In this document: one piece after another, positions 4,544 to 27,544 of the stretch | Layout: each line of letters begins with the position of its first letter | Numbering within the stretch: the stretch's first letter is position 1 | IMG/VR virus record: IMGVR_UViG_3300038701_001123 | Span: 165-64,164 of that record | Length of the DNA stretch: 64,000 nt | Strand: one strand, 5' to 3' | Origin: a virus | Position numbers and translations under genes: made by a program | Notes under the pieces: generated by a model | What the model saw: only the letters and a program-made list of their open reading frames with translations | Databases searched by the model: none | Told to the model about the DNA's origin: nothing

Positions 4544-5609
4544 GGTGCTGATGGATGAACTCCTCCCACAGGGTGATCATCAGGAAGTCTCGGCCATTGG
4601 CGATGGTCTGACGTGGGATCAAGATATTGCCTTCTTGCATCTTGCCATAGACACCGCCTCCGAGATGATCGACAAAGAACAGCTTTTCTCTGTCAATGTG
4701 GGCGTTGAGGGTTTTCTCGCACATCTCGATTGCCTGTTCGACAGTGCGCTTCTCATCATCGGATAGGGTGATCTGTTCAATGGCGTCGTCGCCCCGGTTG
4801 GATAGATAGAGTTTCGCTTGGCTGTCGGTGAGACGTCCTTCACGATAGTACCGACCGGCCTCTTCCAGATATGCTTCTGAGGGAGCGCCGCAGTAGTCAT
4901 AGTCCAGATGGTTCTCCCAGACATCAGTGCGACGGCTGAACATCTTCTCCCAGAAATCTTGCTTGCCCACCGTAGGGAGTCGAGAGGCCAGCTTGTAGGA
5001 GACATCGAAGGAGGACTTGGCGGTGCGATCCTCGGTCAACGTAATGCCGTTGATAAAGTTGTAGGTGAAACGTGTCCGCTTCGGCAGTTGCAGCACACGG
5101 ACACCACGATAGAAGATGAACTGCGAGCCGCCCTCATGGATCTCCAGGTCTTCTCCGAGCCAACGCGGCTCACCGTGAAGGAAGATCTTGTAGCGGTCAG
5201 CGTAGGCTTCGCTGATACCATCGCCGCTGACCCTCCAGCATGTGTCAGCTTCCCAAGGTGTATTGGAGATCTTGCCGCCTTCATCAAGACAGTTGGAATG
5301 CAATTCGCGATACGCCTGCCAGACCTCCCAATTCTTGCCGAGATCGGTGGTGAAACCAAGCTGTTCATCGTTCATGAAAACCAGTGGGAATGGCTCACCG
5401 CGTATGATCTTTTCCCGGCTGGTGAAGACATAGGTCTCGCCATCGCTGTCTAGTTCAACCTTGTGTCCTGTGCGCAGAAGCACGGCTATCGCATACTTCA
5501 ACCCGGTGCCGAAGTAGCCGATGGGGTTGTCATTGTTCTTAACGCTGACACCCATTGTCCGGATGACATCCAGATCAATAGCGCCGCTGTTCGCAAAGTA
5601 GATGGTCAT
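4458..5609 (-). CDS. GHKL (HSP90-like) ATPase domain protein
   Basis: MGVSVK..PIGYFGTGLKYAIAVLLR motif and YRELHSNCLDEGG; start after GAGGCTACC leader. Confidence 0.65.
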   Translation of the reverse strand: MTIYFANSGAIDLDVIRTMGVSVKNNDNPIGYFGTGLKYAIAVLLRTGHKVELDSDGETYVFTSREKIIRGEPFPLVFMNDEQLGFTTDLGKNWEVWQAYRELHSNCLDEGGKISNTPWEADTCWRVSGDGISEAYADRYKIFLHGEPRWLGEDLEIHEGGSQFIFYRGVRVLQLPKRTRFTYNFINGITLTEDRTAKSSFDVSYKLASRLPTVGKQDFWEKMFSRRTDVWENHLDYDYCGAPSEAYLEEAGRYYREGRLTDSQAKLYLSNRGDDAIEQITLSDDEKRTVEQAIEMCEKTLNAHIDREKLFFVDHLGGGVYGKMQEGNILIPRQTIANGRDFLMITLWEEFIHQHLGLDDCTRAMQQYLFDKVLAFAKEKWDT

Positions 5610-6890: not shown

Positions 6891-6975
6891 TGGTGGAGAC
6901 ACCGGGGCTTGAACCCGGACCGGCCTAATGCTTTTGACAGCGACGGCCTGCTCTGACCGATTAAGCTATGTCCCC
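6891..6975 (-). ncRNA. tRNA-like RNA with Ala identity acceptor (G3:U70, A73, CCA) and non-canonical anticodon arm
   Basis: GGGGACA/TGTCTCC-A-CCA acceptor, D arm GCTT/GAGC, T arm CCGGG-TTCAAGC-CCCGG; anticodon arm is 27 nt rather than 17. Confidence 0.8.
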
Positions 6976-7206: not shown

Positions 7207-7208
7207 TT

Positions 7209-7281
7209 TTGATGTGACCGGGATCGAACCGGCTACCCTCTGATTAGAAGTCAGATGCTCTACCAAATGAGCTACTCATCT
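7209..7281 (-). tRNA. tRNA-Arg(UCU)-like gene with defective acceptor stem, no encoded CCA
   Basis: Anticodon arm TCTGA-CTTCTAA-TCAGA, D arm GCTC/GAGC, T arm GCCGG-TTCGATC-CCGGT; acceptor AGATGAG/CACATCA has two A:A mismatches. Confidence 0.7.
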
Positions 7282-7324
7282 AGACCAGGATCTTTTCGAG
7301 CATTCGCCGCATTTTACTCTCATA

Positions 7325-10473: not shown

Positions 10474-10859
10474 TTGAAAACTTTCTTGTAGGCAGCGGCT
10501 CCGACCAGAGCGGTGAGCAGCAGGATACCAGCGCCGGGGGCTGGGACCTGAGCGTTCAGGTTCGGGAGATCAGGTCCATCAAAAACAAAAGCGAGACAAG
10601 TATCTCGACCATACCTCTCTTCACAGGGAATAAACTCACCAACGCAAGTCGGTGGCATTTGAAACCATTTCCCAACGATCACGGCAGGTTCCTGGTCGGG
10701 GTCGCGGGGCCAGACAAGGTCCAGGTTCTCTTCAGTTATGCAGACCGTATTCGAAGCATCTCGAGAAAGCAGGTCTTCGAATATGATTGTGTCGGCCTCC
10801 TGCGGCTCCTCAAGTGGAGGCTCAAACGGGTCCGGTGTGGTGAGTTCAACTGTTGCCAT
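10470..10859 (-). CDS. Protein with C-terminal VPLPA/PEP-CTERM-like sorting signal
   Basis: Ends VPAPGAGILLLTALVGAAAYKKVFK (motif, TM helix, basic tail); no N-terminal signal peptide visible. Confidence 0.65.
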   Translation of the reverse strand: MATVELTTPDPFEPPLEEPQEADTIIFEDLLSRDASNTVCITEENLDLVWPRDPDQEPAVIVGKWFQMPPTCVGEFIPCEERYGRDTCLAFVFDGPDLPNLNAQVPAPGAGILLLTALVGAAAYKKVFK

Positions 10860-10885
10860 GTCTCTACCTTTACTTTCTTGACTAT

Positions 10886-10925
10886 ATTATACCGCAGGCG
10901 CTACCCGGTTGACCAACGGTTTGTT
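10886..10925 (-). promoter_or_regulatory. Promoter, family variant
   Basis: ACAAACCGTTGGTCA-N18-TATAAT. Confidence 0.65.
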
Positions 10926-10985
10926 TCTAGCGCCGCCGGAGGCTTGCTGTGCTGGGGCAGGGGCAACGGTGCGCCCTGTGGTGGG

Positions 10986-11027
10986 GCTGGTGGTGCCTAG
11001 CACGGGCAACCGCCCTCCAGCGCGTCC
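10986..11027 (-). repeat. Bipartite element copy D: GGACGCGCTGGA-N21-ACCACCAGC
   Basis: Direct read; lies in GA/TC-free island 10940-11016. Confidence 0.85.
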
Positions 11028-11043
11028 GTAGGGCTCCAAACTA

Positions 11044-11343
11044 TTAGTCGTGGTGGCCCATAAACTCCCAAACGCCCTGCCAATAGTCCTTGATGTTGCG
11101 TTCCATCAAAGCGACATGATCATTTATATGATCAAAGTCTTCTACACCGACCTGCATTCCATTTGCGATTACTTGAAGCCAGCCGATACAGACGTCCTCC
11201 TGCTCTTCACAGGTAAAGACTTTATATCCACCGTCCTCGGTAAGGTGATCGAAAACAAAATCGTGAATATCCGGGTTTTCAAATATGACTTTGTCGGCCC
11301 CTCGGAGGAAAGGACAATCAAAGCAGGGCGCTTCACAAGCCAT
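11044..11343 (-). CDS. Cys-rich hypothetical protein
   Basis: CEAPCFDCPF N-terminus; abuts primase stop. Confidence 0.6.
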   Translation of the reverse strand: MACEAPCFDCPFLRGADKVIFENPDIHDFVFDHLTEDGGYKVFTCEEQEDVCIGWLQVIANGMQVGVEDFDHINDHVALMERNIKDYWQGVWEFMGHHD

Positions 11344-13754
11344 CAGAATGGCTTCTCAATTTCACCGAGTTCTTCTTCATATGGAAGTTCCTCCCATTCA
11401 GTTTCACCATGCGTCGCTTCCCAAGCTGTGCGGCATTGTTCCAACGTACCGAAATCATACACGTTGACACGAGTCTTGACTTGGTGGCTGCGACCTTCGC
11501 TATCGTAATTCTCAACAGTCATACGCTGCTGGTTCTTGATAAGATGCGGGAACATTCTCTTTAGAAACTTACCAAGCTGAGTCGCATTTCCGCGATGGTT
11601 CATCTGCCACCTTTGGGTATACGACGTGAAATCTTCCTCGAGTTGCTTGGTCGGGATCGCTCCCTGCCATTTGGGATGCTGCTCCACGAGACGACCATCT
11701 TGCAGTTTCTGATAGAACCACTCTTCTTCACGGCTCAGTGACAGATCTTTCTGTTCGCGGAGGGCTTCTGTTTGTGGAACCTTACGGACGTTGAAGTCAC
11801 TGAGGTCTATGGACTGCAAATGGTAGAGCAGAGCCTCGTATCCACCGTTCTCCATTTGTTCATCGATTGCGCCGAAAAACTCGCTGTCCTGCTGGTTACG
11901 GGTTCCAATATCGAAAACACAATATCTCCGTTCATCACCCGTGGCACGGATAACGTGTGGATCATTGGAGGCCATGATCAAGTGAACATAGTTGGGATAG
12001 GGTTCTACGTCAATCCCTTTCTGTTCAATTGGAATGGTTTGCTCAGTGATGAGCATCTTGAGAACTGACTCGTGCTGTTTATCTCCAGCAAAGAAGGCTT
12101 CATCAGCGAACAGAGACACACAGTCTTTTAGGTGAGCGTTGAATTGCCCGACAAGGTGTTTCGCGTTACCGATATGAACATGGTGTCGCCCAAAGAGAGC
12201 ACCGAAGTATTTCGCGACGGTGCCTTTACCTGTCCCCTTGCCGCCACGCAGAACGATCGCAACTTCTCCAGGCGTAGCTGGGAACTGAACTACTCGGGCC
12301 ATCCAGTTGATTAGATAGTTGAAGTTCTCTTCATTGTCACCACAAATGTTGACCCGCAAATGCTCCAAGAACAATGAGCAGTCACCCGGTTGCGCCGCAT
12401 ATGAGAAGCCTCTCCAGAGGTTATACACCCCTTCTTTCTCTTGATTCGGCATGAATTTGATGGTGTCGTACTGGCGACGCATCGGATGGTTCAGCCAGAA
12501 CTTTCCAAGATCGACAACCACTGGTGCGCCTTTGTCGCTCGTACCGACTTGCACCTTCTTGTTGCTGTACCTGTTCCGGACATCTTCGAAACTGGAATAG
12601 GTCAGCTTGGTTCGGTTCAACTGATCATCAGGAACTTCCTCAATGACACGACATTTACCGCTGATGTTGCCGATCACCGCATGGCGGTCGTTCATCCATA
12701 CGAGATCATCGCTGTCTCCGGGGGTTTCAGCATATTCCTTGGCTCGGCCAATTTGTCGGACAGCGTATTGTTCAGCGCGGGCTTTGTTCTCTATGACACT
12801 TTCGGAGATGCCCCACTCAGGATCTGTGAGGATAGCATATATGACTTCGTCCGGAACCTTGCAGCGAACCATACCGCAGCAGAAATCGAACAACCATGCA
12901 GACCGAGAGTTGTCCTTCTCTTTGGGCTCGTCTGGGTGCATACCCTGGACCATAATGATCTTGAGCCTGTCCGGCACTTGATACTGATCCAATTCTGAAG
13001 GATCTTCAATGCGAACCACGTTGCCGGGAATGTTGACTTTCGCCCCTGCGCCTGCTGTGCGTCCAGTTCCGAAATCACCTTGGACCCCTTGTGCTTTCTT
13101 GAACTGATCAATGCTGTAGATATTCTTCGCATTGAATTGCAGCAGCTTGGCGAGAGTTTCAACCCGACCTTTCTTTCGCTTCTTTGCATCCGGGACATTG
13201 ACTGTACCGGGTAGACGCATGATGCGATCAACATTGTGACAGTGGTCTCCGCCGAAGATCTGTTCCAAGCGTTTGTTGTAGAGTTCGAAGTCTAGCCATT
13301 TCTCCTCATTGCCATCAATCTGAATGGCTTTGTCCAACTTCCAGAAGGCTTGAAAGCCACCACCTGAGAACAGGATTACTGTCGGCTCGGGGATACCCTT
13401 GGGGAGTTGATCGGTGAGTTGCCCAAGAGCGCGTTCCTGCTCCTCGGCGATATCCTGACCCTCGGCAGGATCGATGTCGACATGGAGCCAACCGGCTTCC
13501 CACATATCGACCTTGTTCGGCTTCTTGATCTTATCCTGCTTAAAGAACGCATTCTGCGGCCTGTTCACAGTGAAATAGATGTTGCGGTCGCCGTTGTACT
13601 TCTCGATCCAGTTACGGCAAGGCTCCAGAGTATTCGGGCCGAATACAGCGGTATCAATGCCTTTACGGTCAGTTGAAATAGCAGTGAGAAGCCACGGTCC
13701 TTTAGGGTAGAACTTCTCGAGAAACTCAATTGACTTTGGGGTCTCACCTTTCAT
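11343..13754 (-). CDS. Primase-helicase (prim-pol/RepB-like N-terminus plus SF3-type helicase)
   Basis: HVDID, FSGGGFQAFW, RIMRLPGTVN; Walker A GGKGTGKGT; FADEAF; IMASN. Confidence 0.9.
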   Translation of the reverse strand: MKGETPKSIEFLEKFYPKGPWLLTAISTDRKGIDTAVFGPNTLEPCRNWIEKYNGDRNIYFTVNRPQNAFFKQDKIKKPNKVDMWEAGWLHVDIDPAEGQDIAEEQERALGQLTDQLPKGIPEPTVILFSGGGFQAFWKLDKAIQIDGNEEKWLDFELYNKRLEQIFGGDHCHNVDRIMRLPGTVNVPDAKKRKKGRVETLAKLLQFNAKNIYSIDQFKKAQGVQGDFGTGRTAGAGAKVNIPGNVVRIEDPSELDQYQVPDRLKIIMVQGMHPDEPKEKDNSRSAWLFDFCCGMVRCKVPDEVIYAILTDPEWGISESVIENKARAEQYAVRQIGRAKEYAETPGDSDDLVWMNDRHAVIGNISGKCRVIEEVPDDQLNRTKLTYSSFEDVRNRYSNKKVQVGTSDKGAPVVVDLGKFWLNHPMRRQYDTIKFMPNQEKEGVYNLWRGFSYAAQPGDCSLFLEHLRVNICGDNEENFNYLINWMARVVQFPATPGEVAIVLRGGKGTGKGTVAKYFGALFGRHHVHIGNAKHLVGQFNAHLKDCVSLFADEAFFAGDKQHESVLKMLITEQTIPIEQKGIDVEPYPNYVHLIMASNDPHVIRATGDERRYCVFDIGTRNQQDSEFFGAIDEQMENGGYEALLYHLQSIDLSDFNVRKVPQTEALREQKDLSLSREEEWFYQKLQDGRLVEQHPKWQGAIPTKQLEEDFTSYTQRWQMNHRGNATQLGKFLKRMFPHLIKNQQRMTVENYDSEGRSHQVKTRVNVYDFGTLEQCRTAWEATHGETEWEELPYEEELGEIEKPF

Positions 13755-14142
13755 TCCAGAACGCCTCCAGTCGGTCGCTGGGCGCGCGACCGTTTTCCAT
13801 CAGGTTGTACCAATACCGGGTGATACCCATGAGATCGGCACATTCCTGTTGTGTCCATCCTGAGCGATAACGCCACAGGAAGCATTGTTCGTGAGGTTCA
13901 AGAGGCTCAACGACTACCATGAAACCGGGTAGCTTGAGAGTTCCTTCTGCCTCGGCGATACCATATTCACGGCGCTTCATACCGAAACTCTTCGCCATCG
14001 CCTTCTGGCTCAAGCGCATACGCCGACGATAGATTAGCGCCCGTTCTCCCTCAGATAAGTCAGAAGCCTTTCCACTTCCAACCCGTTCGGGAAATACAGT
14101 TCCGCTTCCGCTATCATCTGCGGTCTTGTCATGTTGTCCCAT
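13744..14142 (-). CDS. Tandem XRE-type HTH DNA-binding protein (start uncertain)
   Basis: RRRMRLSQKAMAKSFG and RYRSGWTQQECADLMGITRYWYNLMENG. Confidence 0.75.
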   Translation of the reverse strand: MGQHDKTADDSGSGTVFPERVGSGKASDLSEGERALIYRRRMRLSQKAMAKSFGMKRREYGIAEAEGTLKLPGFMVVVEPLEPHEQCFLWRYRSGWTQQECADLMGITRYWYNLMENGRAPSDRLEAFWNER

Positions 14143-14456
14143 AGATTATTTTCCTTGATGTGTCTTCCGGACCAGAAGAACCACGACCTGCTCACCTGAG
14201 CGCACACCAGCGCCAGTCCGCCGCGTTTCTCCCGACGCCAGAGCCACACCTGTTGTTCTTTCGATAGGGGATGAGGGAACTTCACCGGACGGGTGTCCGC
14301 ACTCTTGGGCCAATACTTCATCCACTTGCATTCGATCCAGCCTCCGATAAAATTAACGTCCGGTATGCCTAGACCAGTGGACGGGCTCTCGATAGAGACC
14401 GCATCAAGCGGTTTCAGTTTCTTTACGAGATTGGCGCGGCTGGATGCTTCAGACAT
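14034..14456 (-). CDS. PD-(D/E)xK nuclease (VRR-NUC/Holliday junction resolvase-like)
   Basis: ES..TGLGIPDV...WIECK; LSKEQQVWL. Confidence 0.75.
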   Translation of the reverse strand: MSEASSRANLVKKLKPLDAVSIESPSTGLGIPDVNFIGGWIECKWMKYWPKSADTRPVKFPHPLSKEQQVWLWRREKRGGLALVCAQVSRSWFFWSGRHIKENNLWDNMTRPQMIAEAELYFPNGLEVERLLTYLRENGR

Positions 14457-14470
14457 TTCTTAGAACCCTC

Positions 14471-14510
14471 ATACTACCTTAGCGATTGGCAATTGACAAC
14501 CTCTACTTAT
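14471..14510 (-). promoter_or_regulatory. Promoter, family variant
   Basis: ATAAGTAGAGGTTGTCA-N17-TAGTAT; overlaps the DK* end of the upstream gene. Confidence 0.55.
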
Positions 14511-14976
14511 CGTGGATTGCCTCTACGGGTCCACGCGCTTGGTTGTGATATTTGCCGTCATAGGACTTTTCGACTGGCTGGTCGACACGGTGGAAGACAA
14601 CCTGACAAATCGGCATACCACGCTTGAGCGTGATCTTCTCCTGGCCGTGGTTCGTAAGTTCCAGCGTAAGCCAGCCTTCCCAACCGGGTTCGATGACAGT
14701 GTTCTGCACGGCCAGACCACGGCGAGCCCAAGTGGACTTGTCGTGGACGATCCCCATAACATCGTTCGGCATACAGAAACGTTCCATCGTGGAAGCAAGA
14801 CGGAACATTCCCGGCCAGAGTTGCATTTCTTTCTCGAAGCCGGTATCATCGAACTCCACACGCATATCATAGCCAGCGGGTCCGACGCCATAGGTCATTC
14901 CCTCATGCTTGGTACGCTCTTCGAATGGAGCGATCATATCACCCATTTGGCGAATCGTTTGTCCTGAGAGTATCAT
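14503..14976 (-). CDS. dcd: dCTP deaminase (trimeric dUTPase fold)
   Basis: GPAGYD, DKSTWARRGL, TVIEPGWEGWLTLEL, YDGKYHNQ. Confidence 0.85.
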   Translation of the reverse strand: MILSGQTIRQMGDMIAPFEERTKHEGMTYGVGPAGYDMRVEFDDTGFEKEMQLWPGMFRLASTMERFCMPNDVMGIVHDKSTWARRGLAVQNTVIEPGWEGWLTLELTNHGQEKITLKRGMPICQVVFHRVDQPVEKSYDGKYHNQARGPVEAIHDK

Positions 14977-15161
14977 CAGACAAGCCCTTTCTCAATTGCT
15001 ACATTTTCAGGAAGAGACACGACCCAATCGTGTTCATCCCACTCGTGTTGTGATTTCGGTATCCATACATCAGGTCCGTCTTCTTCGAACTTGAAGCACC
15101 GCGCCTTTTCAGTCTCAGCCTGAAGAGTCGCGTCTAGATCTACTATTTGATTTCTCCCCAT
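14976..15161 (-). CDS. Small hypothetical protein
   Basis: ETEKA....DVWIPKSQ.....LPE.VAIEKGL pattern seen in phage proteins. Confidence 0.6.
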   Translation of the reverse strand: MGRNQIVDLDATLQAETEKARCFKFEEDGPDVWIPKSQHEWDEHDWVVSLPENVAIEKGLV

Positions 15162-17221
15162 GACGGGCCACACTCCGTGTCTACTTTGAAAGGAACAAGC
15201 GGGTCACACCGCTCAGTGATACAATCCCGCATGATGTCACCAGCGGTGACTGCTTCGGCGACCGAACCATAGCTGCCATCTGTCTCATCATGCACTTGGA
15301 GTTGAAGGTAGTAGCCAGCGCGGTCTAGTTCCACGATAGCGAGTTTAGTTTGGTCTGCGCTGGAGCCTTGGATCACACGGTTCAGAGCCTTGTGAGTATA
15401 GTCATAGCTGCCATCATCACGCTGTTCAAAGTGAAGGTGCCGACCAAGGATTGTCTTGACGTAGCCATTGGCCTCAGCGCGTTCTGTGGCGGTTTTAGCC
15501 AGCTTACCAACGAACGGCGCTTCTCTGTCAAACTTGTCTAGGATCTCCTGACCTTCTTCACCCGCCATTTCCTTGACAAAGCCAGTGCCAGTTTCCATGC
15601 GAGCAGCCATAGCGTCCATTCGGGTTTCATAGAACTCTACACGGCGCTCACGACCCCATCCAGATATATGTCCCCAGCGGGTAGGCTTGCCGATATCGTG
15701 ACATAGCTTGGCCCCGCCTTCTCCATAGCAAAGCCCAAGGTAGATAGCCTTGGAGAAACCGCGTTCCACTTTGTAAATCCCCTTCGGATCTTCGGCCAGC
15801 CACATTTCCACTTGGGCATCACCATTCACCAGTCGAGTCATCATATCGTGGTTATCAGTGGATGGGTCTTCTCTGTACCGGCGAGCAGCCTCTGCCGCTT
15901 TCGGTAGATCAAGCACGGCGGCGAAGTGAGTTGTCCAGCGCGGTTCCTGTTGTGAGTAGTCGTTACAGCCCCAAATCGCTCCCTCTTCTGGTATGAAGAT
16001 CTTGCGCCATTCACCAGCAATAACCGGATCACGGTCTGGTGAAGGTTGCTGTTGGAGGTTCGGGTGGGTTGCTGAGAGTCTGCCGTACCGAACACCTTTC
16101 TGATCCCCGGCTTCATCTTCTCGCGCAATTTGGTGGAATTGACAGTGGATCTTGCCATTGACTTGGTAGCGGTGAATTGATGCGGCGAAAGTAGTTCTGA
16201 TCTTGTTGACTTTGCGGGCATGGAGAATGGCATTGGGAACCGGGTGTTCACTGCCTCCGAGCAGAGCCTTGTCAATCTGTGGTGCGCCGGTACTGGTTTT
16301 CTTCAGACGCATGCCGATGGCTTCGAGAGCAGGAGCCAGAGCATTGGGCTTCCACACGTTATCCATACCGATGTCTACGCCAGTGGCGTCTTTGACTTGC
16401 TTGACTGCTTTCTTTTCTTCACTGAGAGCCCATTGTTCGATCTCATCCAGCTTGTCGAAATCAATCCGGACACCACGACGTCTCATGCGAACCAGCACAG
16501 GTAGAACATCGCTTTCCAGATCCCAGATCTGTCGCATACCCATGCGGTCTATGATCTCTTCCTGCTTACGAAGGATCTCCAGCGGTGAAGCCACGTCCTG
16601 CTCACCATAAGCACCAACATATCGACCGGGAAGACGCCACAGCCCTTTCTTTGGGTCAAGACCATGCGCTCTCGCTGCTTCCACCAGCATTGTGTCATCT
16701 TTGGCTTCGATGCCGTAACGCTTACCGATGTTCGCTAGAGAGTAGGAGAAATGAAGTTCGTAGATAAGTGGGTCTGCGATTTGAATATCGCGGAACCTCG
16801 CATTCTTATTCCACTCAAATCCATCATTGTATCCATAGTCGACATCATACGCCAGATTTGCTCCAACGTACTCTCCCTCGAAATGCTTGATCTGCGACCG
16901 CAGATAGCGAAGGGCTTCGTCTTCTGGAATGTTATCACCGCCTTCGTGTCTAAACGGAAGGTAGTGTTTTGGACCACCGTCAATGGCGAAAGCCCATCCG
17001 ACGGTATACCCATCACGCATCTGACCAGAGCCGAGGTTGTTTCCGATTGATGGATCTCTGGTCTCTGCATCGATAGCTATCCTTTTGGCACCAGCCCAAG
17101 AGGGGAGGTCGCTGATCCTGGGAGGACGCCAGTCAGTTTCAGGCATAAAGAAGCCCATCTGAATTGGCGCTGTCCCATCATTGAGTGCTTTCGCATGTGC
17201 CTGTTTAGTCTGCTTCGCCAT
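15143..17221 (-). CDS. polA: Family A DNA polymerase with 3'-5' exonuclease
   Basis: ExoI DAET; GRLSATHPNLQQ; motif A DYSQQEPR; motif B KAIYLGLCYG; motif C QVHDE. Confidence 0.95.
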   Translation of the reverse strand: MAKQTKQAHAKALNDGTAPIQMGFFMPETDWRPPRISDLPSWAGAKRIAIDAETRDPSIGNNLGSGQMRDGYTVGWAFAIDGGPKHYLPFRHEGGDNIPEDEALRYLRSQIKHFEGEYVGANLAYDVDYGYNDGFEWNKNARFRDIQIADPLIYELHFSYSLANIGKRYGIEAKDDTMLVEAARAHGLDPKKGLWRLPGRYVGAYGEQDVASPLEILRKQEEIIDRMGMRQIWDLESDVLPVLVRMRRRGVRIDFDKLDEIEQWALSEEKKAVKQVKDATGVDIGMDNVWKPNALAPALEAIGMRLKKTSTGAPQIDKALLGGSEHPVPNAILHARKVNKIRTTFAASIHRYQVNGKIHCQFHQIAREDEAGDQKGVRYGRLSATHPNLQQQPSPDRDPVIAGEWRKIFIPEEGAIWGCNDYSQQEPRWTTHFAAVLDLPKAAEAARRYREDPSTDNHDMMTRLVNGDAQVEMWLAEDPKGIYKVERGFSKAIYLGLCYGEGGAKLCHDIGKPTRWGHISGWGRERRVEFYETRMDAMAARMETGTGFVKEMAGEEGQEILDKFDREAPFVGKLAKTATERAEANGYVKTILGRHLHFEQRDDGSYDYTHKALNRVIQGSSADQTKLAIVELDRAGYYLQLQVHDETDGSYGSVAEAVTAGDIMRDCITERCDPLVPFKVDTECGPSWGEIK

Positions 17222-17603
17222 TCAAGATCTCCACAATTCTCGCTGCTCGGTTCATAGGTACGGCGGTGACGGAGATCTCCTCTAATTCAACAGTTTGCAG
17301 TTTGCGAAGCCCAGCTTCTTGTTTCTCCTGTCGGCCAGCGTAGCCGATGGAAAGCCCAGAAAGGCAGTGTTCCCTGATCCAGAACTGTGCGTCCTCATCA
17401 AGTACGGTGCCTTCACACCAGAGACCGTAGTCTTTCTCTTGTATTAGATCCCATCGGCCGATGATCTTCGATGAGTCATGCGACAACAGCATCGGCCTGA
17501 CATATGTGAATTTCTTGAGATCTGCCACGAAGCAGCCTTTGACGGTCACATCGTTATGACTATCACTCTCCCCGAATACCGAGGCCCACCCTTTGATGAT
17601 CAT
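17205..17603 (-). CDS. HK97-type prohead protease (S78-like), outside head module
   Basis: IKGWASVFG..D, MLLSHD...IGRW, GLSIGY, EEISVTAVPMN..ARI. Confidence 0.8.
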   Translation of the reverse strand: MIIKGWASVFGESDSHNDVTVKGCFVADLKKFTYVRPMLLSHDSSKIIGRWDLIQEKDYGLWCEGTVLDEDAQFWIREHCLSGLSIGYAGRQEKQEAGLRKLQTVELEEISVTAVPMNRAARIVEILNGEAD

Positions 17604-18277
17604 TATTCGTCACCTTCATAGCCAAATGGGGCGGGATGGTTGATTTTCCCGACGCCTGTGGACGCGCTGGATGCCGGGGGCTGGGTGGTAGCACCACCAG
17701 CACGTCCAGCGGCCCCGGTTTTAGCGGGCTGTGGCCGCTTTAGGCCAGTGGTGGGGGCAGGGGTAGCCCCGGCACCGGCCCGCGCTTGTGCGGCCTCTAC
17801 AGCGTTCCTAAGTATCTGCTCGGCCAGCCCGATCGCAACGGCAAGGTCGCCTTCATTCTGCCAACCGGCAACCGCCAGCATGAAATTCGTTTCCAGCGGT
17901 GAAAGCTGATTGCTTTCGCAGAACCGATTGGTATTCATGATAGCCAGATGGGCGAGTGAGCGATTGGCTCCGACCACAGTCGACCAGTTCTTGAGGCGCT
18001 TCTCCAGAAATGCCTCTTTGGCCTTGGTGAGATAATGGATGCCCTTCTGGACGTCCTGCACACCGTTCTTCTTGTTCCAGCGTGTGACATACTTCGTGGC
18101 TGCGCTTTCAAGATAACCGAGCCGGATATCGATAGACCAGTCCCAATGCTGATAGTCGCTTTGGTAGTGATTACCGCCGACTTGATATTCACTGGCAGAT
18201 TTCTTGCAGTTGCATTCTGCCCCGTCCCACAATTGCTTTCCGCAATCGCAGAACTTTACATCACGATCATGGCTCAT
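17603..18277 (-). CDS. DUF3310/SaV-like nucleotide kinase-type protein with low-complexity C-tail
   Basis: YQVGGNHY, AATKYVTRWNKKNGVQDVQKGIHYL. Confidence 0.75.
   Translation of the reverse strand: MSHDRDVKFCDCGKQLWDGAECNCKKSASEYQVGGNHYQSDYQHWDWSIDIRLGYLESAATKYVTRWNKKNGVQDVQKGIHYLTKAKEAFLEKRLKNWSTVVGANRSLAHLAIMNTNRFCESNQLSPLETNFMLAVAGWQNEGDLAVAIGLAEQILRNAVEAAQARAGAGATPAPTTGLKRPQPAKTGAAGRAGGATTQPPASSASTGVGKINHPAPFGYEGDE
17660..17701 (+). repeat. Bipartite element copy A: GGACGCGCTGGA-N21-ACCACCAGC
   Basis: Direct read; embedded in coding sequence. Confidence 0.85.
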
Positions 18278-18495
18278 TGCATAACCTCTAGCTTCTTGCG
18301 GAGATCAGCGGCCAGAAGAGGATACTCTTCTTCACACGCATCAGCGTAGGCAGCGATCGCAGCAGCGGCGAACGGATCATGGTCCAGATCCAGGACAAAG
18401 TATTCACAGCCGACATGCTTGCCTCCAGGCTCTGACTGGCCGTCTGTGCGTTCAACGTGGAACTTGCGGTAGATACCTTTGTCTTTCTGTCCCAT
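18274..18495 (-). CDS. Conserved phage hypothetical protein
   Basis: YFVLDLDHDPFAAAAIAAYADAC motif. Confidence 0.7.
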   Translation of the reverse strand: MGQKDKGIYRKFHVERTDGQSEPGGKHVGCEYFVLDLDHDPFAAAAIAAYADACEEEYPLLAADLRKKLEVMQ

Positions 18496-19053
18496 TCAAA
18501 ACTCCATGTCGGGAAGGGTCTGCCAATCAGACTCCTTGATTTCGTAATAGAGGTCGATCAGTTCCACTGGAAACTCATGTTGCTTCTTGATCATGAATTG
18601 TTCGACATATTTCTTTTGGGTTTCCACTGTGCGATTACCAAGCATGAGTTGGTCTTTGCACCAGCAGTAGAACTCGAGCATATCGAGTCCCTTGAGCCAT
18701 TTGATTTCTTCGGGAGTACAAGCTGTCACGCTGTCGCTGCCGAAAACCTCGCTGTTGAGGTACATCTCAATATGACTCTGTCGGTCAAAATTGAGGAGAC
18801 CCATTGCCTTTGCAGGATGAGACATATCGCCGGTGACACGTTCAGGCATGTCGTGTTCAAGGACAGCCCAAACGAGGCGGAGAGGAGCATCCGGCCACAT
18901 GATCCTCAGCATTGTCAGCATGTTGAAACTGTGCATCCCGACATAGTGTGGTAGAGGCGGAGGGGTGCAGTGGGTGCGATGAACATTGGCGGCTTCGCGG
19001 GAATATTTCACCCGCTCCACCAATGTTTCGATTGCGTAGGGTTCCGAGGTCAT
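18496..19053 (-). CDS. HD-domain 5'-deoxynucleotidase (YfbR-like)
   Basis: VGMHS, LEHDMPERVTGD, KGLDMLE; ATGA overlap with TS homolog. Confidence 0.8.
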   Translation of the reverse strand: MTSEPYAIETLVERVKYSREAANVHRTHCTPPPLPHYVGMHSFNMLTMLRIMWPDAPLRLVWAVLEHDMPERVTGDMSHPAKAMGLLNFDRQSHIEMYLNSEVFGSDSVTACTPEEIKWLKGLDMLEFYCWCKDQLMLGNRTVETQKKYVEQFMIKKQHEFPVELIDLYYEIKESDWQTLPDMEF

Positions 19054-20075
19054 ACGTCGCGCCTTTCCAGCCATTCGAGACAAGCCTTGCGCCAGTCGGT
19101 TGCAGCGATACGGTCAGCGAAATATCGAGCCGAGTCCATGAAGTCCGGGGCGTCCTTGTCCTTCCACGCTTCCCACGCTTGGAACATCGGCACCACCACC
19201 TTCTTGAAGAAGGGGTCTTGGAAACCCATGACTGGTCCTTCGGACATGAACATATCCAGATCACGGAACCACGTCTCGATATCAGTGTTCACAATCTGGA
19301 ATGGTTGAACTTCCCCGAGTTCGTACGGAGTGAAGCCGGGGGACAGGTTCAGGAGAGCCTTGTGCTTTTCGAAAGTGTTGAGGTAAGCGTGGAAGTTGCT
19401 GCTGATCTGCCAATAGCGACCAACAGGCACCCCGATCCATGTAGCCATGACTTCCTGGAGAACCGAGAAGTGAACAGCGTTGGCACCGTATGCGCCCCAG
19501 ATCAGATCGTTGCTGCGGTTGAACACAGTCATATCGAGATGGCCTGACGGATTGATCCGGAAGGTTGTCACGAGGTTGCAGGGGAAGTCCTTGCCCATCA
19601 TGCCGAGATCAGCACTGGTGTCCCACATTTGGAGAACAATGCGGCGATCATCAGGGTTCTGCTTGAGAGCAGCAGCAATTGTCTGGAGTTGGTCGATGAT
19701 GCCGACTTTCTGGATCTGACCACCATCAGCTTCCCAGGCTCCAAACCAGTTGCGCCAGCGATATCCGTAAGCGCCGTGGAATGTAACACCATCATCAGAG
19801 AATTGCCCAAAGGTGGAATTGAACCGCTCGATCCAAGCGACATCATTACGACCGGCCAGCATCCACAGGCTTTCCATGAAATGGAAGAACGGATTACAGT
19901 CCCGCTCAGGAAGGAACATAACCCTCTCCCTTGGGTTCTGATACACCGTGGTCAGCGGTGCTTCGAAGGTATAGACCGGACCATTGCGACTGTCGCGGTG
20001 CTTCCCTTCGGCCTTGGTTTTCTTCATGCTGAGGATAAGGGCTTCCTCGACATTTCTCGCATATATGACTTCCAT
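19050..20075 (-). CDS. Thymidylate synthase homolog, probable dUMP hydroxymethylase
   Basis: DFPCN catalytic Cys, RSND..WGAYGAN (Asn at the dUMP-specificity position), FHAY; PNPFF-like CNPFFHFME. Confidence 0.8.
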   Translation of the reverse strand: MEVIYARNVEEALILSMKKTKAEGKHRDSRNGPVYTFEAPLTTVYQNPRERVMFLPERDCNPFFHFMESLWMLAGRNDVAWIERFNSTFGQFSDDGVTFHGAYGYRWRNWFGAWEADGGQIQKVGIIDQLQTIAAALKQNPDDRRIVLQMWDTSADLGMMGKDFPCNLVTTFRINPSGHLDMTVFNRSNDLIWGAYGANAVHFSVLQEVMATWIGVPVGRYWQISSNFHAYLNTFEKHKALLNLSPGFTPYELGEVQPFQIVNTDIETWFRDLDMFMSEGPVMGFQDPFFKKVVVPMFQAWEAWKDKDAPDFMDSARYFADRIAATDWRKACLEWLERRDV

Positions 20076-21346
20076 TACAGGAGAACTCCAAAGTGGTTGA
20101 AAAGGATATCATCGGCCTTGTCTGCTTGTGCAGCAGTGAGAGTGCCTTGGATGACTTCGACGTCGACCTCACCATGAGCAAGATCAATGACCCGCTGTGC
20201 CACAGTCTTGCGATCGAACATGGGCAGTAGATCATTTGCATTGGTCTGATAGCGACTTGCTTCGCTGACAGACATATGGCTCGCCTCTAGAATTGTATCG
20301 GCGTATTCGGCAGGATAAGCATCAGGAGGGATCTCAATGTAATGCTCACCGGCCACAAACAGTTCATCACCCATGCCAGCACGGCGAGCCACAGGGACAG
20401 CACCGCGTATCATGGCGTCGACCACCACACGGTTGAAGTGACCACCGATCTTGGAATAGTTCTTGGACCACGATGGATCCACAAGGATCCGGGCTTCCTC
20501 GAGCCAACTATTCACTTCGTCAGTGTCCCAATAGTCGTGATGGGTCATGCCGTTTTCAAGAGCGGCGTCCCAGAACCGGCGACCATCTTCGTGAAAATAG
20601 GCATCCTTGCATTTGTCTTCGCTGGTCATATAGCGATATTCAATTCCGAGGCCAGCGATCTCGCGCAGTTCATCAGCCTCTTTGGGCGGCATATAGGCGA
20701 TTGCCTCCACCAGTTCATGAACATGCTTCCAGGCTTTGAAAGTCTGCATGTTCACAAAGCCGGGTGATTTGATATGCCATTCTTCAATTGACCGAATAGG
20801 TTCGAATTGAGGGTTCACCACCAGCGCACGAGGAACATCGAAGATTTGAGCACCATTGAGAGCGCAGGGGTGAACACAGGCAAGCCCAGAGAGGTGGTCC
20901 TGCACGGCGACGAGGTGACTGTTGCCTTTTACGGCATTTCCATCGTGAATGAACGCAATCTGCTTAATGCGTTCTGGAAGGTCGTACAACTCGGGCCAGT
21001 CATTATTGCCGAGATTGTTCTTGTTTTTGCTTGGACATGGCACGGTCCAAATGATGAGATCGTAACGTTCGAGGATCTGTTTTGCTCCAGAAAGAGCAGC
21101 ACCACCACGATAAGGAATACGCTCCGTACGATCAAAGTTCCACCCCTTTCCTTGATGATGGGCGATACCGCTAGGGCCGATGCTCCAGTCTGCGGTTTTT
21201 CGCTGAGCGGGCGCATTGAACGCCCATACCATTTCTTTCAGATGAACCTCATGGCCGAGGTCTTGAAGACCGCCGATGAGTTGCTCTGTATGGTTGATAA
21301 TTCCACCAAGGTCCATGCACTGGTGGAGTGCGACTAGTATCTTCAT
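20075..21346 (-). CDS. GT-B fold glycosyltransferase
   Basis: MKILV..GGIINHTEQLIGGLQDLGHEV N-terminus; ILVDPSW...GHFNRVVVDAMIRGAVPV C-terminal motif. Confidence 0.75.
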   Translation of the reverse strand: MKILVALHQCMDLGGIINHTEQLIGGLQDLGHEVHLKEMVWAFNAPAQRKTADWSIGPSGIAHHQGKGWNFDRTERIPYRGGAALSGAKQILERYDLIIWTVPCPSKNKNNLGNNDWPELYDLPERIKQIAFIHDGNAVKGNSHLVAVQDHLSGLACVHPCALNGAQIFDVPRALVVNPQFEPIRSIEEWHIKSPGFVNMQTFKAWKHVHELVEAIAYMPPKEADELREIAGLGIEYRYMTSEDKCKDAYFHEDGRRFWDAALENGMTHHDYWDTDEVNSWLEEARILVDPSWSKNYSKIGGHFNRVVVDAMIRGAVPVARRAGMGDELFVAGEHYIEIPPDAYPAEYADTILEASHMSVSEASRYQTNANDLLPMFDRKTVAQRVIDLAHGEVDVEVIQGTLTAAQADKADDILFNHFGVLL

Positions 21347-21408
21347 TTGGGCTTCTCCGAAACTGCCTGACCACCATAGCGGCCCCGCAGGCAAAAGACA
21401 AGTGTAGT

Positions 21409-21591
21409 TTATCGCTTCCAAATCACCATGATCACAAGGATCAGTGGCCACAGAGGAGCGATGATCAGTAAGATCACACAGGCAAGCCAGCCCAGAGAGC
21501 GACGGTTCTTGGCTGCATAATTCAGGAAGAATAGTTGACTGAGCCCGATATACAGGCTCAGCCAGAAGTTATCAGTCAGCCATTCCAGCAT
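21409..21591 (-). CDS. Small membrane protein
   Basis: Two hydrophobic segments. Confidence 0.55.
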   Translation of the reverse strand: MLEWLTDNFWLSLYIGLSQLFFLNYAAKNRRSLGWLACVILLIIAPLWPLILVIMVIWKR

Positions 21592-22483
21592 AGCGGCTCC
21601 GAGGCTTGCCCTGCCCCAGCCTGACCCGTTCGTACTTGTCGAACTCGCAGAGTTGGAACTGGATATCGTGGGGTGCTAGTTGATCCCATTCACTTGGTAG
21701 GAACAGACCTTGGTTCATAACCAGAGCCTTGATGACATCACCCGCCGCTGTTTCTTTCAGAGGTTTGGCATCATCATCGCCGTTGACCCTTGCTGCTCCA
21801 CGACGAGCACCCGGACCGATTGGCGTCCATTCTGTCCAGTCACAAGGAAAGCTGAATGAACCGTCTACAGGGTGTTCAACCTGATCGTCCCAGAAGCTGG
21901 AATAGGTGGTGTCCAGCAGAATTTCCTTGGTCATGAAGCCAGAGCCTCCGAAACCTTGGATGGTTCGCATTTCGTCAGCCACGAACTCCCAGCACATGGT
22001 CCTTTGGGTGATGTCCATCAGCTTCGGAATCGCCTTCTGCAGAGCCTTGAGAAAGTAGTCGACCACCACTTCTTGCTTAGGAGCGGAGATCCCTTGGTTC
22101 GTGATGACATACGCGCCGGTGAACACCCGTTCTTTGTTTGCCAGTCGGTCTTCGGCGAGGTCTTTGACCCATTCCCAATGGTCTTCATCCATTGCCTCGT
22201 AGTCGGTCCAGCCCAAAGCAGTTGCGAACTCGTGCGTTCCGAAGTAACGGAATGTTGCGGCGTTCATCAGGATACTGCGACGGTCGTCGTGAAAGTGTGG
22301 TCCGTAGAATTGTTCTCTCAACTCCCTGCTGGTCCTATCGTGATGACGATGGACGTTGGTGAACTTGTATCCTTGAAGGATGGGATCATCAGTCCAAGGA
22401 CGAGGAAGGCCCGCCTCCTTTCGAAGACGGACCTTTTCGCGTTCCTCGACAAACTCGAAGAACTGGTTCTGACGATCGAGCAT
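21572..22483 (-). CDS. 5-hmdU DNA kinase helical-domain / aGPT-Pplase1-like protein
   Basis: ERE.VR..KEAGLPRPWTDDPIL..YKFTNV.R..DR, GFGGSGFM..E, D.QF.LCEFDKY.R motifs. Confidence 0.75.
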   Translation of the reverse strand: MLDRQNQFFEFVEEREKVRLRKEAGLPRPWTDDPILQGYKFTNVHRHHDRTSRELREQFYGPHFHDDRRSILMNAATFRYFGTHEFATALGWTDYEAMDEDHWEWVKDLAEDRLANKERVFTGAYVITNQGISAPKQEVVVDYFLKALQKAIPKLMDITQRTMCWEFVADEMRTIQGFGGSGFMTKEILLDTTYSSFWDDQVEHPVDGSFSFPCDWTEWTPIGPGARRGAARVNGDDDAKPLKETAAGDVIKALVMNQGLFLPSEWDQLAPHDIQFQLCEFDKYERVRLGQGKPRSRYAGMAD

Positions 22484-23202
22484 CAGGAAGCGTTGGCCTT
22501 GGCCACTTCCTTGGCCGCTTTCGCATCAGCCTTCTCTTTGGCCTTGCGTTCGCGTTCAGCCGCCTTTTCAGCCTTGGCCTTTTCACGGGCCTCTTTCTTC
22601 TCGGCAGCGGCCTTCTCGCGTTCGGCCTTCGCTTTGGCCCGCTCTTCGGCCTTCAGACGTTTCGCCTCTTCGGGGTCGGTCAGGCCGTGCTTCTTGTACC
22701 ACGCGGCCTTGCGTTCAGCGAATTCTTCGTCCGTCGGCTCGGTCACGGTCATGATGCCTTGACCCTGCCAGTTGTAGACGTCCCAAGGCTCGGTGCCTTC
22801 GGTCTCAATGACATCGACAATGGTCATGCCATCCTTGTAGTTCGGCCAGCGATGCGCCCGCCCCTGAGTACCGTCATGTTCGCCGGTCTTCGAAATGGTC
22901 GAAAACATTTTCTTGGTCGGACGCTTGACAACCTTCGCCTCAGCCGACTTCGCCAGACCACGTTCCTTGGGCGGAGCCTTCGGTTTGGTTTTCTTGGCCT
23001 TGGTATCATCGGTGTTGGAAGCGACCCGCTCCAGGGCTTTCCAGGTCTGCGCTTCGGCAGTGGCCTGATCCTTGAAGCCTTTGACTTCGGCCACACCCAG
23101 ATCGGCGGCGACAGCATTGCGGAGGGTCAGAAGTTCGTCGACGGACATATCTTTCAGCGATGCTTGGGTGTAGTCCTTACCCTGGAAGTTGATCGAGGTC
23201 AT
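22483..23202 (-). CDS. Hypothetical protein with K/A/E-rich coiled-coil C-terminus
   Basis: GGAG RBS; AERAKAKAEREKAAAEKKEAREK... tail. Confidence 0.75.
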   Translation of the reverse strand: MTSINFQGKDYTQASLKDMSVDELLTLRNAVAADLGVAEVKGFKDQATAEAQTWKALERVASNTDDTKAKKTKPKAPPKERGLAKSAEAKVVKRPTKKMFSTISKTGEHDGTQGRAHRWPNYKDGMTIVDVIETEGTEPWDVYNWQGQGIMTVTEPTDEEFAERKAAWYKKHGLTDPEEAKRLKAEERAKAKAEREKAAAEKKEAREKAKAEKAAERERKAKEKADAKAAKEVAKANAS

Positions 23203-23310
23203 AGTTGACTCCATTTCTGTGATATCACGTTGTTGCCTCTTGCAAGGTGGAATAACCCTACGCCATCCGAGCCTTAGAGGCAACAACTATTTGTCTTTGA
23301 GAGACAACTT

Positions 23311-25170: not shown

Positions 25171-25180
25171 GGGTTTCCTC

Positions 25181-26419
25181 TCACATTCTGACTACAGTCA
25201 CGGCGTCGGCCGCACGGGTTATCGCAGTATAGAGCCACCGCCATTTGTCTTTGCGGAAGCAGTAGCTTTCATCGAAAACACAAACATTCCGCCATTGACT
25301 ACCCTGCGCTTTATGGCAGGTCAGAGCATAGCCGAATGCGAATTCTTGTGCTTCACGTTTTTCGTACCAACCGAGTAGTTCTTCTGTGCCGAGGAAATGA
25401 TGCTCGTGAGCATTTACTTCTATCGACGCGAGACTATCCTCTGGGTGAATTGACATGAACACCTTAGAGTCCATGACCCCTTCCACATCAGACACTTCAA
25501 AGATGGCCCCATTCAGCAAGCCTAACTCACTGTTGTTTCGAAGGCAAACCAATCTGTCTCCGAGTACGGGGTAAGGATCCGTGATCCCTTTCAGTTGCCG
25601 AAGTTTCGCGTTGGTCAGCTTCCTTGTCTTGTTTTTGCCGACCAGTATCTGATCGTAGGACAGCATTGTGTCGGCGTCCAGCTTCGTGCCGGTAGGGTGA
25701 ACGTAGCATCCTTCTCCCCATTCTCCAACTGTAAGTGGGATATGATTGCGAGTATCCGTAGCCATGCGGATGATCGGGCTTTCTTGGGCTTGCCGATGGA
25801 TCTCCGTAAGCATGATGTTCGGGGTAATGTTCTCAGTAAAATACCCTGCGCCTCCGACAGGAGGAAGCTGCGCTGGATCGCCCAAGACGAGGACAGGTGT
25901 TCCGAAGCTTAGAAGGTCTTGACCCATTTGCGCATCGACCATGGAGCATTCGTCGATTACGATAAGGTCGGCATCACGGGCGGCGCTTTCCGTGTTGAGA
26001 ATGAACATGGGCTGTTCAGAGTTGTCGGCTTCGACTTTGATATCTTCCTTGAGGCGGCGAACCTTTGGATGATCCTCAATGAACTCATCTTTCAGACCGC
26101 TTTCATTGAGTTGTTTGACAAGATTCTCGAGTTCGAGTTCCAGTTCTTGCAGACGGGCTCGGCTCTTGTCCCGGCTGTGATATATCAAGCTGTGAATTGT
26201 CTGAGCATTCTCACAACCCTTCTGACGTAGAACGTGGGCGGCTTTGCCTGTAAATGCTGCGAATATAACGTCTCCATCAACACCTTCGGCAAGGTGCTTT
26301 GCAAGAGTTGTTTTGCCGGTGCCAGCAAACCCAAAGAGATGAAATACCTGATGATCGCCGTGATTGAGCCATGCGTTGACTTCCATCAATGCACGATTTT
26401 GTTCTGGACTGAAATCCAT
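25181..26419 (-). CDS. RecD/Dda-like SF1B helicase
   Basis: GFAGTGKTT, IVIDECSM, LGDPAQLPPV, YALTCHKAQGSQW, LYTAITRA. Confidence 0.9.
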   Translation of the reverse strand: MDFSPEQNRALMEVNAWLNHGDHQVFHLFGFAGTGKTTLAKHLAEGVDGDVIFAAFTGKAAHVLRQKGCENAQTIHSLIYHSRDKSRARLQELELELENLVKQLNESGLKDEFIEDHPKVRRLKEDIKVEADNSEQPMFILNTESAARDADLIVIDECSMVDAQMGQDLLSFGTPVLVLGDPAQLPPVGGAGYFTENITPNIMLTEIHRQAQESPIIRMATDTRNHIPLTVGEWGEGCYVHPTGTKLDADTMLSYDQILVGKNKTRKLTNAKLRQLKGITDPYPVLGDRLVCLRNNSELGLLNGAIFEVSDVEGVMDSKVFMSIHPEDSLASIEVNAHEHHFLGTEELLGWYEKREAQEFAFGYALTCHKAQGSQWRNVCVFDESYCFRKDKWRWLYTAITRAADAVTVVRM

Positions 26420-26440
26420 AGAGAGCCTCCAATGAAAGGG

Positions 26441-26474
26441 TGAGGGGCGAGCCTCGGGGAAAGCCCGCCCCTCA
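26441..26474. terminator. Inverted repeat after SSB gene
   Basis: TGAGGGGCG...CGCCCCTCA; weak U tract. Confidence 0.45.
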
Positions 26475-26504
26475 GGGGGTAGATGCGCGTCCTAACAGCC
26501 CAAC

Positions 26505-27365: not shown

Positions 27366-27544
27366 TTCTGAGTTCCTTGTTCAGAGTTAGTCAGTATCTC
27401 CAGGGTATCCCTCCTGGCAGAGTAGTATAGGTAGAGGGTCGGTCAACTCCCTCATTCATCCGCCTTCATTACCCTTCGGCATCTGGCTTGGTCCACCTTC
27501 CCGCCTAATAAGTCTCCATCCGGACTGCATCCTTCATGCTCCAC

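Follow-up and report, generated by a model that had tools for sequence, protein, structure and literature searches.

A repeated palindromic DNA element with a fixed 26-nt centre and GA/TC-free islands in a siphovirus and its relatives

The replicase of pRN1 (ORF904), in which an archaeo-eukaryotic primase (AEP) domain is joined to a superfamily 3 (SF3) helicase as well as to a winged helix, is co-transcribed with a small repressor and needs a stem-loop of ~100 nucleotides (nt) just downstream of its own operon. The integrity of the stem is required, deletions of three bases in the loop abolish replication, and similar stem-loops have been reported after such replicase genes in phages, e.g. in BIP-1 (PMC4234260). 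RepB', a primase of RSF1010, primes solely at the hairpin signals ssiA and ssiB, one for each strand; each is 40 nt long with its hairpin at nt 7-27, and the two are neighbours in oriV, where iterons adjoin them (PMC8567376). Repeated sites of another kind are the nick sites of the T5, phiKMV-like, tf and LUZ24-like phages, a short consensus of 9-19 nt present in few copies at conserved genome positions; in T5, phiKMV and tf all of them are on one strand (PMC3517423). Here we describe a ~70-nt, imperfectly palindromic element which stands four times in a 64,000-nt stretch of DNA from an uncultured marine siphovirus (positions 165 to 64,164 of the IMG/VR record IMGVR_UViG_3300038701_001123, called the window below). 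This virus encodes an AEP-SF3 primase-helicase, and to our knowledge hardly any replication start signal is described for phages using such enzymes.

Several traits of the locus recall pRN1. The AEP and SF3 domain classes of the replicase meet in the phage protein, a small helix-turn-helix (HTH) gene is coupled to it upstream as the repressor gene is in pRN1, and one copy of the element, capable of forming a stem-loop, lies directly downstream of the replicase operon. The element differs in that its arms are conserved in sequence rather than in structure only and in that it is present in four dispersed copies.

The element and its conservation

An earlier note on this DNA reported the bipartite motif CGCTGGA-N21-ACCACCAGC in four exact copies. 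This was borne out: the window has four matches, while 100 dinucleotide-preserving shuffles gave none. The motif cores lie at 10986-11022 on the minus strand and at 17665-17701, 32387-32423 and 60221-60257 on the plus strand. No copy beyond these was found in the whole 64.6-kb virus record, and a fuzzy search allowing mismatches and spacers of 15-27 nt gave no degenerate fifth copy. The heptamer CGCTGGA/TCCAGCG is not over-represented genome-wide (23 seen, ~19 expected). GGACG, said to stand usually 5' of the motif, does so in three of the four copies, the fourth having GGACCG, and the inverted boxes are present where they had been noticed (TCCAGCG at 11016, 17705 and 41946, TCCTGCG at 32499).

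The motif is the mere core of a longer element, since CCTACGGACG is conserved 5' of it and NCNNCCACAGG 3' of it, and the whole forms an imperfect palindrome. Alignment of the flanks gives the consensus ...CCTACGGACG-CGCTGGA-N21-ACCACCAGC-NCNN-CCACAGG... on the motif strand. In what follows the element is read on the opposite strand, where its canonical form is 5'-CCCTGTGG-nnnn-GCTGG-[TGGT-N21-T]-CCAGC-GCGT-CCGTAGGG-3'. The outer arms CCCTGTGG and CCGTAGGG pair with two G-T wobbles, the inner arms GCTGG and CCAGC flank a centre of 26 nt, and the middle segment GGACGT/GCGTCC pairs in some copies; the consensus arms are GGACGYGCTGG and CCAGCRCGTCC, extended outward by the outer arms. From centre to centre the inner arms are 31 bp apart, i.e. 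~three helical turns. The right arm, TCCAGCGCGTCC, is the best conserved part and the left arm is more variable; in the copies of type 1 the left half-site retains GCTGG alone. The element exists as two isomers, in which the asymmetric centre is oriented differently relative to the asymmetric arms.

The four copies were named A to D. Element A (10964-11044) has its canonical reading, GCTGGTGGT...TCCAGCGCGTCC, on the plus strand, antisense to the flanking genes, and is intergenic: its neighbours are the stop, at 11044, of a 99-amino-acid (aa) open reading frame (ORF) which follows the primase gene, and a 129-aa ORF starting at 10859, and A comes immediately behind the primase operon. About 50 nt past it a sigma-70-like site (10915-10886) precedes the 129-aa ORF and the ligase gene. 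Element B (17643-17723, minus strand) reads canonically on the sense strand and falls within the 3' low-complexity part, rich in Gly, Ala, Thr and Pro, of a DUF3310/nucleotide-kinase-like ORF (17603-18277), ~40 nt short of the following start codon and upstream of the PolA gene; the frame stays open across the element in the relatives G001, G003, G004 and L070 as well. Element C (32365-32445, minus strand) is intergenic, in the 120-nt gap between the stop of the last ORF of the tail-fibre module (32489) and the start of an Rz-like spanin gene (32367). Its right outer arm overlaps the ribosome-binding region of the spanin gene, a purine-rich AGGGG/GAGG 8-12 nt before the ATG. Element D (60199-60279, minus strand) lies between the end of a gene for an Rv2179c-like exonuclease (60296-60808) and the start of an orphan 121-aa ORF without homologue in any relative; its boxes and inner arms are present and the outer stem is absent. 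The earlier note had placed two copies in coding DNA, and the coding status differs from what it implied: B is within an ORF and D at the 5' end of one, while A and C are intergenic.

The overlap of the right outer arm of C with the purine-rich stretch (window 32367-32385) is found in G001, G003, G004 and G005 too, and a hairpin at C, if formed in RNA, would mask this ribosome-binding stretch.

Relatives were recovered by pattern scans of IMG/VR, by a protein search with the polymerase and by a hidden Markov model search. Single hits of the exact-pattern scans were mostly due to chance, and true relatives among them amounted to only ~7 contigs. The element is present in at least 10 further viral contigs; relatives compared by DNA are 65-75% identical to the window. 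Five near-complete genomes have three to four copies each, at four shared junctions: following the primase operon, ahead of the polymerase gene, ahead of the lysis genes and within the early region. To the earlier note, absence of the motif from close relatives, or a spacer of varying length there, would have counted against its signal. The scan spoke for the signal: the syntenic places were kept and the spacer length was unchanged. No relative with the element was found among cultured phages by megablast or blastn. The centre measures 26 nt in all the 24 aligned copies, the sole indel of the set being in a right arm.

Comparison of the copies separates the arms from the centre. Between different loci of the same genome the identity was 0.71 in the arms and 0.30 in the centre, between different genomes at the same locus 0.72 and 0.50, and where both locus and genome differed 0.67 and 0.35. 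Since the identity of the arms is alike within and between loci whereas that of the centre is lower, the arms are held to one consensus and the centres drift by descent; no concerted evolution was seen in this comparison. The simplest explanation for arms held to one consensus at all loci is a common factor which reads their sequence. The earlier note took the motif for a real signal at DNA level, and the conservation with fixed spacing at syntenic places supports this. The element is real, is under selection and is undescribed so far. It is likely that it acts in cis and is read at DNA level by one sequence-specific factor.

In the window and in G001, G003, G004, G005, G008 and L070 the site of element A is kept, antisense to its neighbours in each of them, and in L144-L146 the GA/TC-free island described below survives there. 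In three more distant relatives, whose primase is only 56-63% identical, the boxes have diverged and GC-rich GA/TC-free islands remain at loci A and B. The canonical reading of element B runs with the genes in the close relatives; that of C does so in the window and G004 and runs against them in G001 and G003, and that of D does so in the window only. The split between the strands is 3:1 in the window and 1:3 in G001. Since the orientation counts vary between genomes, no polar rule tied to the replication strand became apparent. Cumulative GC skew shows no turn anywhere within the window. At locus C the flanks and the arms of the window and G001 can be aligned without inversion, but the 26-nt centre lies the other way round; at locus D the inversion between genomes comprises the entire element, and the flanks do not align. 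The signal is thus orientation-tolerant and at DNA level, as is seen from the inversions at C and D, from the copies in both coding and non-coding DNA and from the avoidance of GA/TC on both strands. Hairpin-loop (flip-flop) inversions are known in non-coding hairpins of chloroplasts and in the terminal repeats of parvoviruses. The centre of locus C, found in both orientations between inverted arms in related genomes, is similar to these, but the phage inversion is seen between genomes only: the source population has a single form, with one unbroken contig (depth 1105) spanning B and C.

A relative ~93-95% identical to the window is present in gut metagenomes of one study (run X3, animal gut; a contig of 64,635 nt compared over window positions 12601-32600). 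This contig has three places, on both strands, that match the first box of element C together with its left flank.

GA/TC-free islands

All 24 copies lack the dinucleotides GA and TC over the stretch that begins with the left inner arm and closes with the centre; their absence from the spacer of the four window copies had been noticed earlier. No reverse-complement dinucleotide pair is commoner in the window than GA and TC, whose gaps average 6.5 nt, yet there are runs of 196, 124, 107, 91, 77 and 64 nt without them. Five control dinucleotide pairs gave no comparable runs in the window. Long runs in the relatives are nearly exclusive to GA/TC as well, AA/TT giving one run just over the threshold in each of three relatives; the longest GA/TC-free runs were 693 nt in G003, 616 nt in G007 and 301 nt in G005.

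The elements lie in or beside such islands. The island around A (10940-11016, 77 nt) has the same extent in the window, G001, G005 and G008 and is bounded by CGCCGGA...TCCAGCG. Beside B there is an island of 91 nt (17706-17796), the B core itself (17672-17704) being a further GA/TC-free run. The island around C (32393-32499, 107 nt) is bounded by CGCTGGA...TCCTGCG, and a run of 44 nt (60227-60270) covers D. Of the six largest islands of the window, three have the inverted heptamers CGCTGGA/TCCAGCG at their two edges, allowing one mismatch at most, a pairing for which the background rate is 1%; in relatives the heptamers are found again at these islands.

The largest islands (window 56344-56539, also 56291-56339 and 56567-56617; G003 23605-24297; G007 10482-11097; G005 19200-19500) lie over a conserved early gene whose product, rich in Ala, Thr and Lys (MATT...PLFVAGTMPPVRPGTHRAYAQ...PKGFTLAQ), has no Pfam match. 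This gene is nearly or wholly devoid of GA/TC, over up to 693 nt in one relative. The coding sequence of the tape measure has an island of 95-124 nt, conserved in four genomes and starting with a CGYTGGA-like box (window 41823-41946; G001 44948-45057; G005 5396-5489; G004 11916-12030). A further island, of 64 nt, is flanked by inverted AGTATAGTC iterons upstream of the SNF2-type helicase gene.

As the avoided dinucleotides are the reverse complements of each other, their avoidance points to a property of duplex DNA. The only encoded activity which could plausibly give GA/TC a meaning in duplex DNA is the thymidine-hypermodification pathway, and we infer a link to it. The cluster consists of three genes on the minus strand (19050-22483): a thymidylate-synthase homologue (19050-20075), a GT-B glycosyltransferase (20075-21451), which is below the Pfam cut-off, and a 5-hydroxymethyldeoxyuridine (5-hmdU) DNA kinase (21572-22483; PF18723, E 1e-32). 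The 5-hmdU pathway of Pseudomonas phage PaMx11 is characterised (PMC8989533); PaMx11 has no GA/TC-free islands and has different repeats. A literature search on the sequence context in which 5-hmdU-derived modifications occur gave nothing usable. It is possible, though doubtful, that the hypermodification by the 5-hmdU kinase and the glycosyltransferase is directed to TC/GA contexts, and that the whole phage family has evolved "modification deserts" of 40-700 nt, empty of GA/TC, which surround its cis-acting elements of replication or regulation and take in one early gene completely; the palindromes would be protein-landing sites inside them. If so, this would be the first virus found to shape motif-free islands in order to keep selected DNA readable, and the specificity of a thymidine-hypermodification pathway would have been revealed from sequence alone. 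The islands would then predict where this modification goes and where the phage refuses it.

Candidate readers of the element

The 803-aa primase-helicase is encoded at 11343-13754 on the minus strand. Its N-terminal 330 residues have a predicted fold (predicted local distance difference test, pLDDT, 87) for which Foldseek returned the PrimPol of cyanophage S-2L (6zp9, E 6e-9) and RepB' of RSF1010 (3h20, E 7e-6; 3h25, E 2e-5), identifying an AEP domain. A sequence profile of the primase gave no match among PDB sequences; the fold search alone succeeded. PF16793 (RepB_primase) scores slightly too low in this protein to pass its cut-off; many of the ~1,700 homologues have it on record. Residues 462-660 match a PDB chain named "Primase" (6k9e/6k9c, E 1.5e-9) and the Pfam DUF5906 NTPase domain, which is of SF3 type. 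The last 180 residues are modelled (pLDDT 82) as a helix-helix-beta-hairpin, a module which may be a winged helix. The gene of a 132-aa HTH protein (13744-14142, minus strand) overlaps the start of the primase gene. This protein looks like a regulator of its own operon, and the gene pair resembles the repressor-replicase operon of pRN1 (PMC4234260).

The elements most likely mark the sites of action of the phage's own primase-helicase or of another sequence-reading protein. The earlier note had named the HTH protein, the terminase and the 22483 protein as candidates; we think that the AEP-SF3 primase-helicase is a better candidate reader than the terminase or the 22483 protein. We favour, tentatively and well short of an even chance, the reading that the elements are loading or priming sites of this replicase, kept unmodified. 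The arms would be read by a single sequence-specific factor, the phage's own RepB'/PrimPol-like primase fused to the SF3 helicase, and the 26-nt centre would serve as a ruler, fixed in length, free in sequence and devoid of GA/TC. The elements would then be sites of replication start or helicase loading, such as stem-loop origins or single-strand priming signals, and the GA/TC-free islands would keep them untouched by thymidine hypermodification.

What is seen of copy A, of the HTH-primase gene pair and of a centre invariant in length and free in sequence agrees with the pRN1-type pattern, in which the loop is free in sequence and its size matters. The phage stem is shorter (17 interrupted pairs), its loop has 26 nt vs ~58, and its winged helix is putative. 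With the RSF1010 signals the elements share the relationship of the reader, since the phage primase domain has RepB' among its closest structural relatives, and also the hairpin-capable form, conserved flanking bases and occurrence on both genome strands. They differ from ssiA and ssiB in being ~70 nt long and 6-28 kb apart and in sharing no sequence with ssiA, and the iteron cluster of the phage (30025-30259) is not adjacent to any copy. Locus A with its GA/TC-free island persists in the distant relatives mentioned above. A conserved element with a strict length ruler offers a concrete substrate for binding and priming assays; ~1,700 homologues of the replicase were found in public data.

The complementarity of the arms is real. 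In the 24-copy alignment 73% of the cells of column i against column 81-i are standard pairs, compared with 36-50% when the partners are slid by 1-3 columns, and in the inner helix pairing reaches 88% of the cells. When folded, A, B and C each give a single long hairpin, z being -2.2, -2.8 and -1.8 for single-stranded DNA of the canonical strand. The single substitutions CCGGC, CUAGC, CUGGC and GUUGG keep wobble pairing on the canonical strand only, and one G-C to A-U exchange was seen, in the G004 lineage. Selection for pairing as such is not demonstrated by this; demonstrated are the conserved primary sequence and the fixed spacing.

A number of observations weigh against the replicase as reader and against a hairpin as the form that is read. 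Shuffling the 3' letters within columns of the 24 copies leaves the pairing at the same 73% and gives a higher covariation score, the folding excess of the 65-nt cores is modest, D (z = -1.0) does not form the hairpin, and whole islands at locus A fold no better than shuffles (z ~0). With no covariation, a modest folding excess and no outer stem in D, the data do not demonstrate a hairpin and agree just as well with a binding site in duplex DNA. The structural matches of the C-terminal module are weak, all to winged-helix proteins (RTP 1f4k, TFIIE and ORC; E 0.05-0.3, best 0.047). There are four dispersed copies instead of one origin, and a separate cluster with six AGTATAGTC repeats lies at 30025-30259. 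The locus-C copy of G005 has decayed, with loss of the inner arms, so that not every copy is essential. Finally, PaMx11, although its replication module is syntenic and a primase of similar size is annotated there in the corresponding position, carries neither elements nor islands.

Instead of DNA, the signal might be read in RNA. Hairpins in the long sense transcripts would stop, process or stabilise the mRNA at module junctions, as a factor-dependent terminator or an RNase III-type site, and at C they would sequester the ribosome-binding site of the spanin gene. All four copies stand at the ends of genes or modules, A being followed by the promoter-like site, C has the purine-rich stretch of the spanin gene in its right arm, and in PaMx11 an intrinsic terminator is annotated at the equivalent of locus B, just before the gene pair which ends in the polymerase. 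A palindrome folds either way and would tolerate flips. Over window positions 1-64000 the sense (minus) strand has no canonical hairpin-plus-T-run terminator, so that some other signal must punctuate transcription. However, avoidance of both GA and TC suits duplex DNA and not one RNA strand, and the strand which folds better has no fixed relation to the transcribed one, being antisense at A in every genome and switching at C and D. A length-invariant centre of 26 nt and a 12-nt invariant arm are atypical of terminators; no U-tract follows any copy, there is no covariation, and no Rfam family is matched. We therefore regard a role in RNA as rather unlikely.

Another phage protein may use the element as a duplex operator or enzyme site. 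This could be the HTH protein of 13744-14142, a nickase making localized single-strand interruptions, as the earlier note had proposed, or a component of the modification machinery for which the boxes are the boundaries of unmodified islands. The conserved primary sequence, the half-sites at a fixed distance of 31 bp, the tolerance of either orientation and the lack of covariation agree with this, and so do the inverted heptamers at the edges of islands in the window and in relatives. A phage ATP-dependent ligase is encoded just downstream of A, and nick sites, too, keep their positions among related phages (PMC3517423). The arms, though, are unequally conserved, the right one far better than the left, of which type-1 copies have only GCTGG, and the heptamer is not enriched genome-wide. 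An explanation of this kind seems unlikely to us. Within it the nickase is, by our analysis, a highly improbable case, because the known nick systems keep all sites on one strand while the elements are split across both; the described nick sites also lack a long variable spacer, whereas the elements are bipartite and flip in evolution.

Still less is to be said for a selfish or relict palindromic repeat of REP or RPE type, spread to four places in an ancestor and persisting without function, which we consider very unlikely. The imperfect palindrome, its two orientations, the in-frame insertion in the coding region at B, the decay of C in G005 and the window context of D, not shared with relatives, are what such a repeat would leave. 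But REP and RPE repeats occur in many, variable and non-syntenic copies, while here three to four copies are stable and syntenic across genomes which are only 65-75% identical in DNA, and neutral DNA at such divergence would hold neither a 12-nt arm invariant nor a 26-nt centre without indels; no empty site, target duplication or transposase was found. A Chi-like recombination hotspot, suggested by the second box being the complement of GCTGGTGG and by the E. coli octamer in all four window copies (13 octamers in the window, 10 on its sense strand), may be taken as all but refuted, as a third-order Markov model already expects 4.3 on the sense strand and finds no excess in relatives, many orthologous copies have lost the intact octamer, the second box of relatives being GTTGGTGG, GCTGGCGG or TCTAACGG, the source samples are algal and marine metagenomes and not enteric hosts, and Chi needs neither a partner box nor a fixed spacer; the earlier note had rightly suspected a coincidence.

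Other readings were tried and rejected. The note's view that the motif is no promoter holds, as orientation is mixed, the boxes are 21 nt apart vs the 16-18 nt of sigma-70 promoters, promoter scans find nothing on the elements, and sigma-54 sites (GG-N10-GC) are not enriched (25 matches vs 30 expected). The 26-nt centre and the lack of a T-run after any copy exclude an intrinsic terminator, and the elements are no RNA of a known Rfam family. A peptide repeat was considered, the palindrome encoding G-R-A-G-G in both orientations, but A has an in-frame stop, A and C are intergenic, and the nucleotide identity is without synonymous variation. Readings of the centre as part of a diversity-generating retroelement, as CRISPR-like or as a guide fail because the centres are orthologous and drift by descent.

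Genome context and further repeats

The window encodes a siphovirus with all long ORFs on the minus strand. The structural genes include those of the tape measure, the major head protein, the portal and the large terminase. The replication block comprises an SNF2-type helicase, a Dda-like helicase, a ribonucleotide reductase, a family A polymerase, a dCTP-deaminase-like protein, the HTH protein, the primase and the ATP-dependent ligase, and its gene order matches that of PaMx11. No close cultured relative was found; the nearest isolates are PaMx25, NP1, DoCa3 and MMDA13, with ~63% capsid identity. The phage was present in 19 runs from algal, marine, aquatic and animal-gut metagenomes.

The cluster at 30025-30259, upstream of the SNF2-type helicase gene, contains the 9-mer AGTATAGTC six times (five direct, one inverted), a doublet of ACTGGCAAC and an AT-rich stretch; it looks like a classical iteron-type origin or operator. 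In PaMx11 (L096) a ~300-nt inverted duplication (413-715 and 28241-28542, 80-100% complementary in pieces) has one copy at the left end of the genome and the other upstream of the helicase gene, a position corresponding to that of the iteron cluster in the window. The minus strand of the window has the 7-mer CTTGGGC 27 times and the plus strand 16 times, where a third-order Markov model predicts ~9; the copies are scattered in coding DNA with unconserved flanks (minus-strand examples at 56796, 48119, 45336, 17100, 9586 and 6526). A good hairpin-plus-T-run terminator lies on the plus strand near 57060-57110.

Directly upstream of the polymerase gene, and overlapping it, lies a 132-aa ORF (17205-17603) with a match to head maturation protease families of HK97 type (phrog_80, E 6e-21), which is unusual beside a polymerase. 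Besides a tRNA-Arg(TCT) gene at 7208-7282, Rfam detected a second tRNA-like gene at 6894-6975 (44 bits) which is absent from the ARAGORN output.

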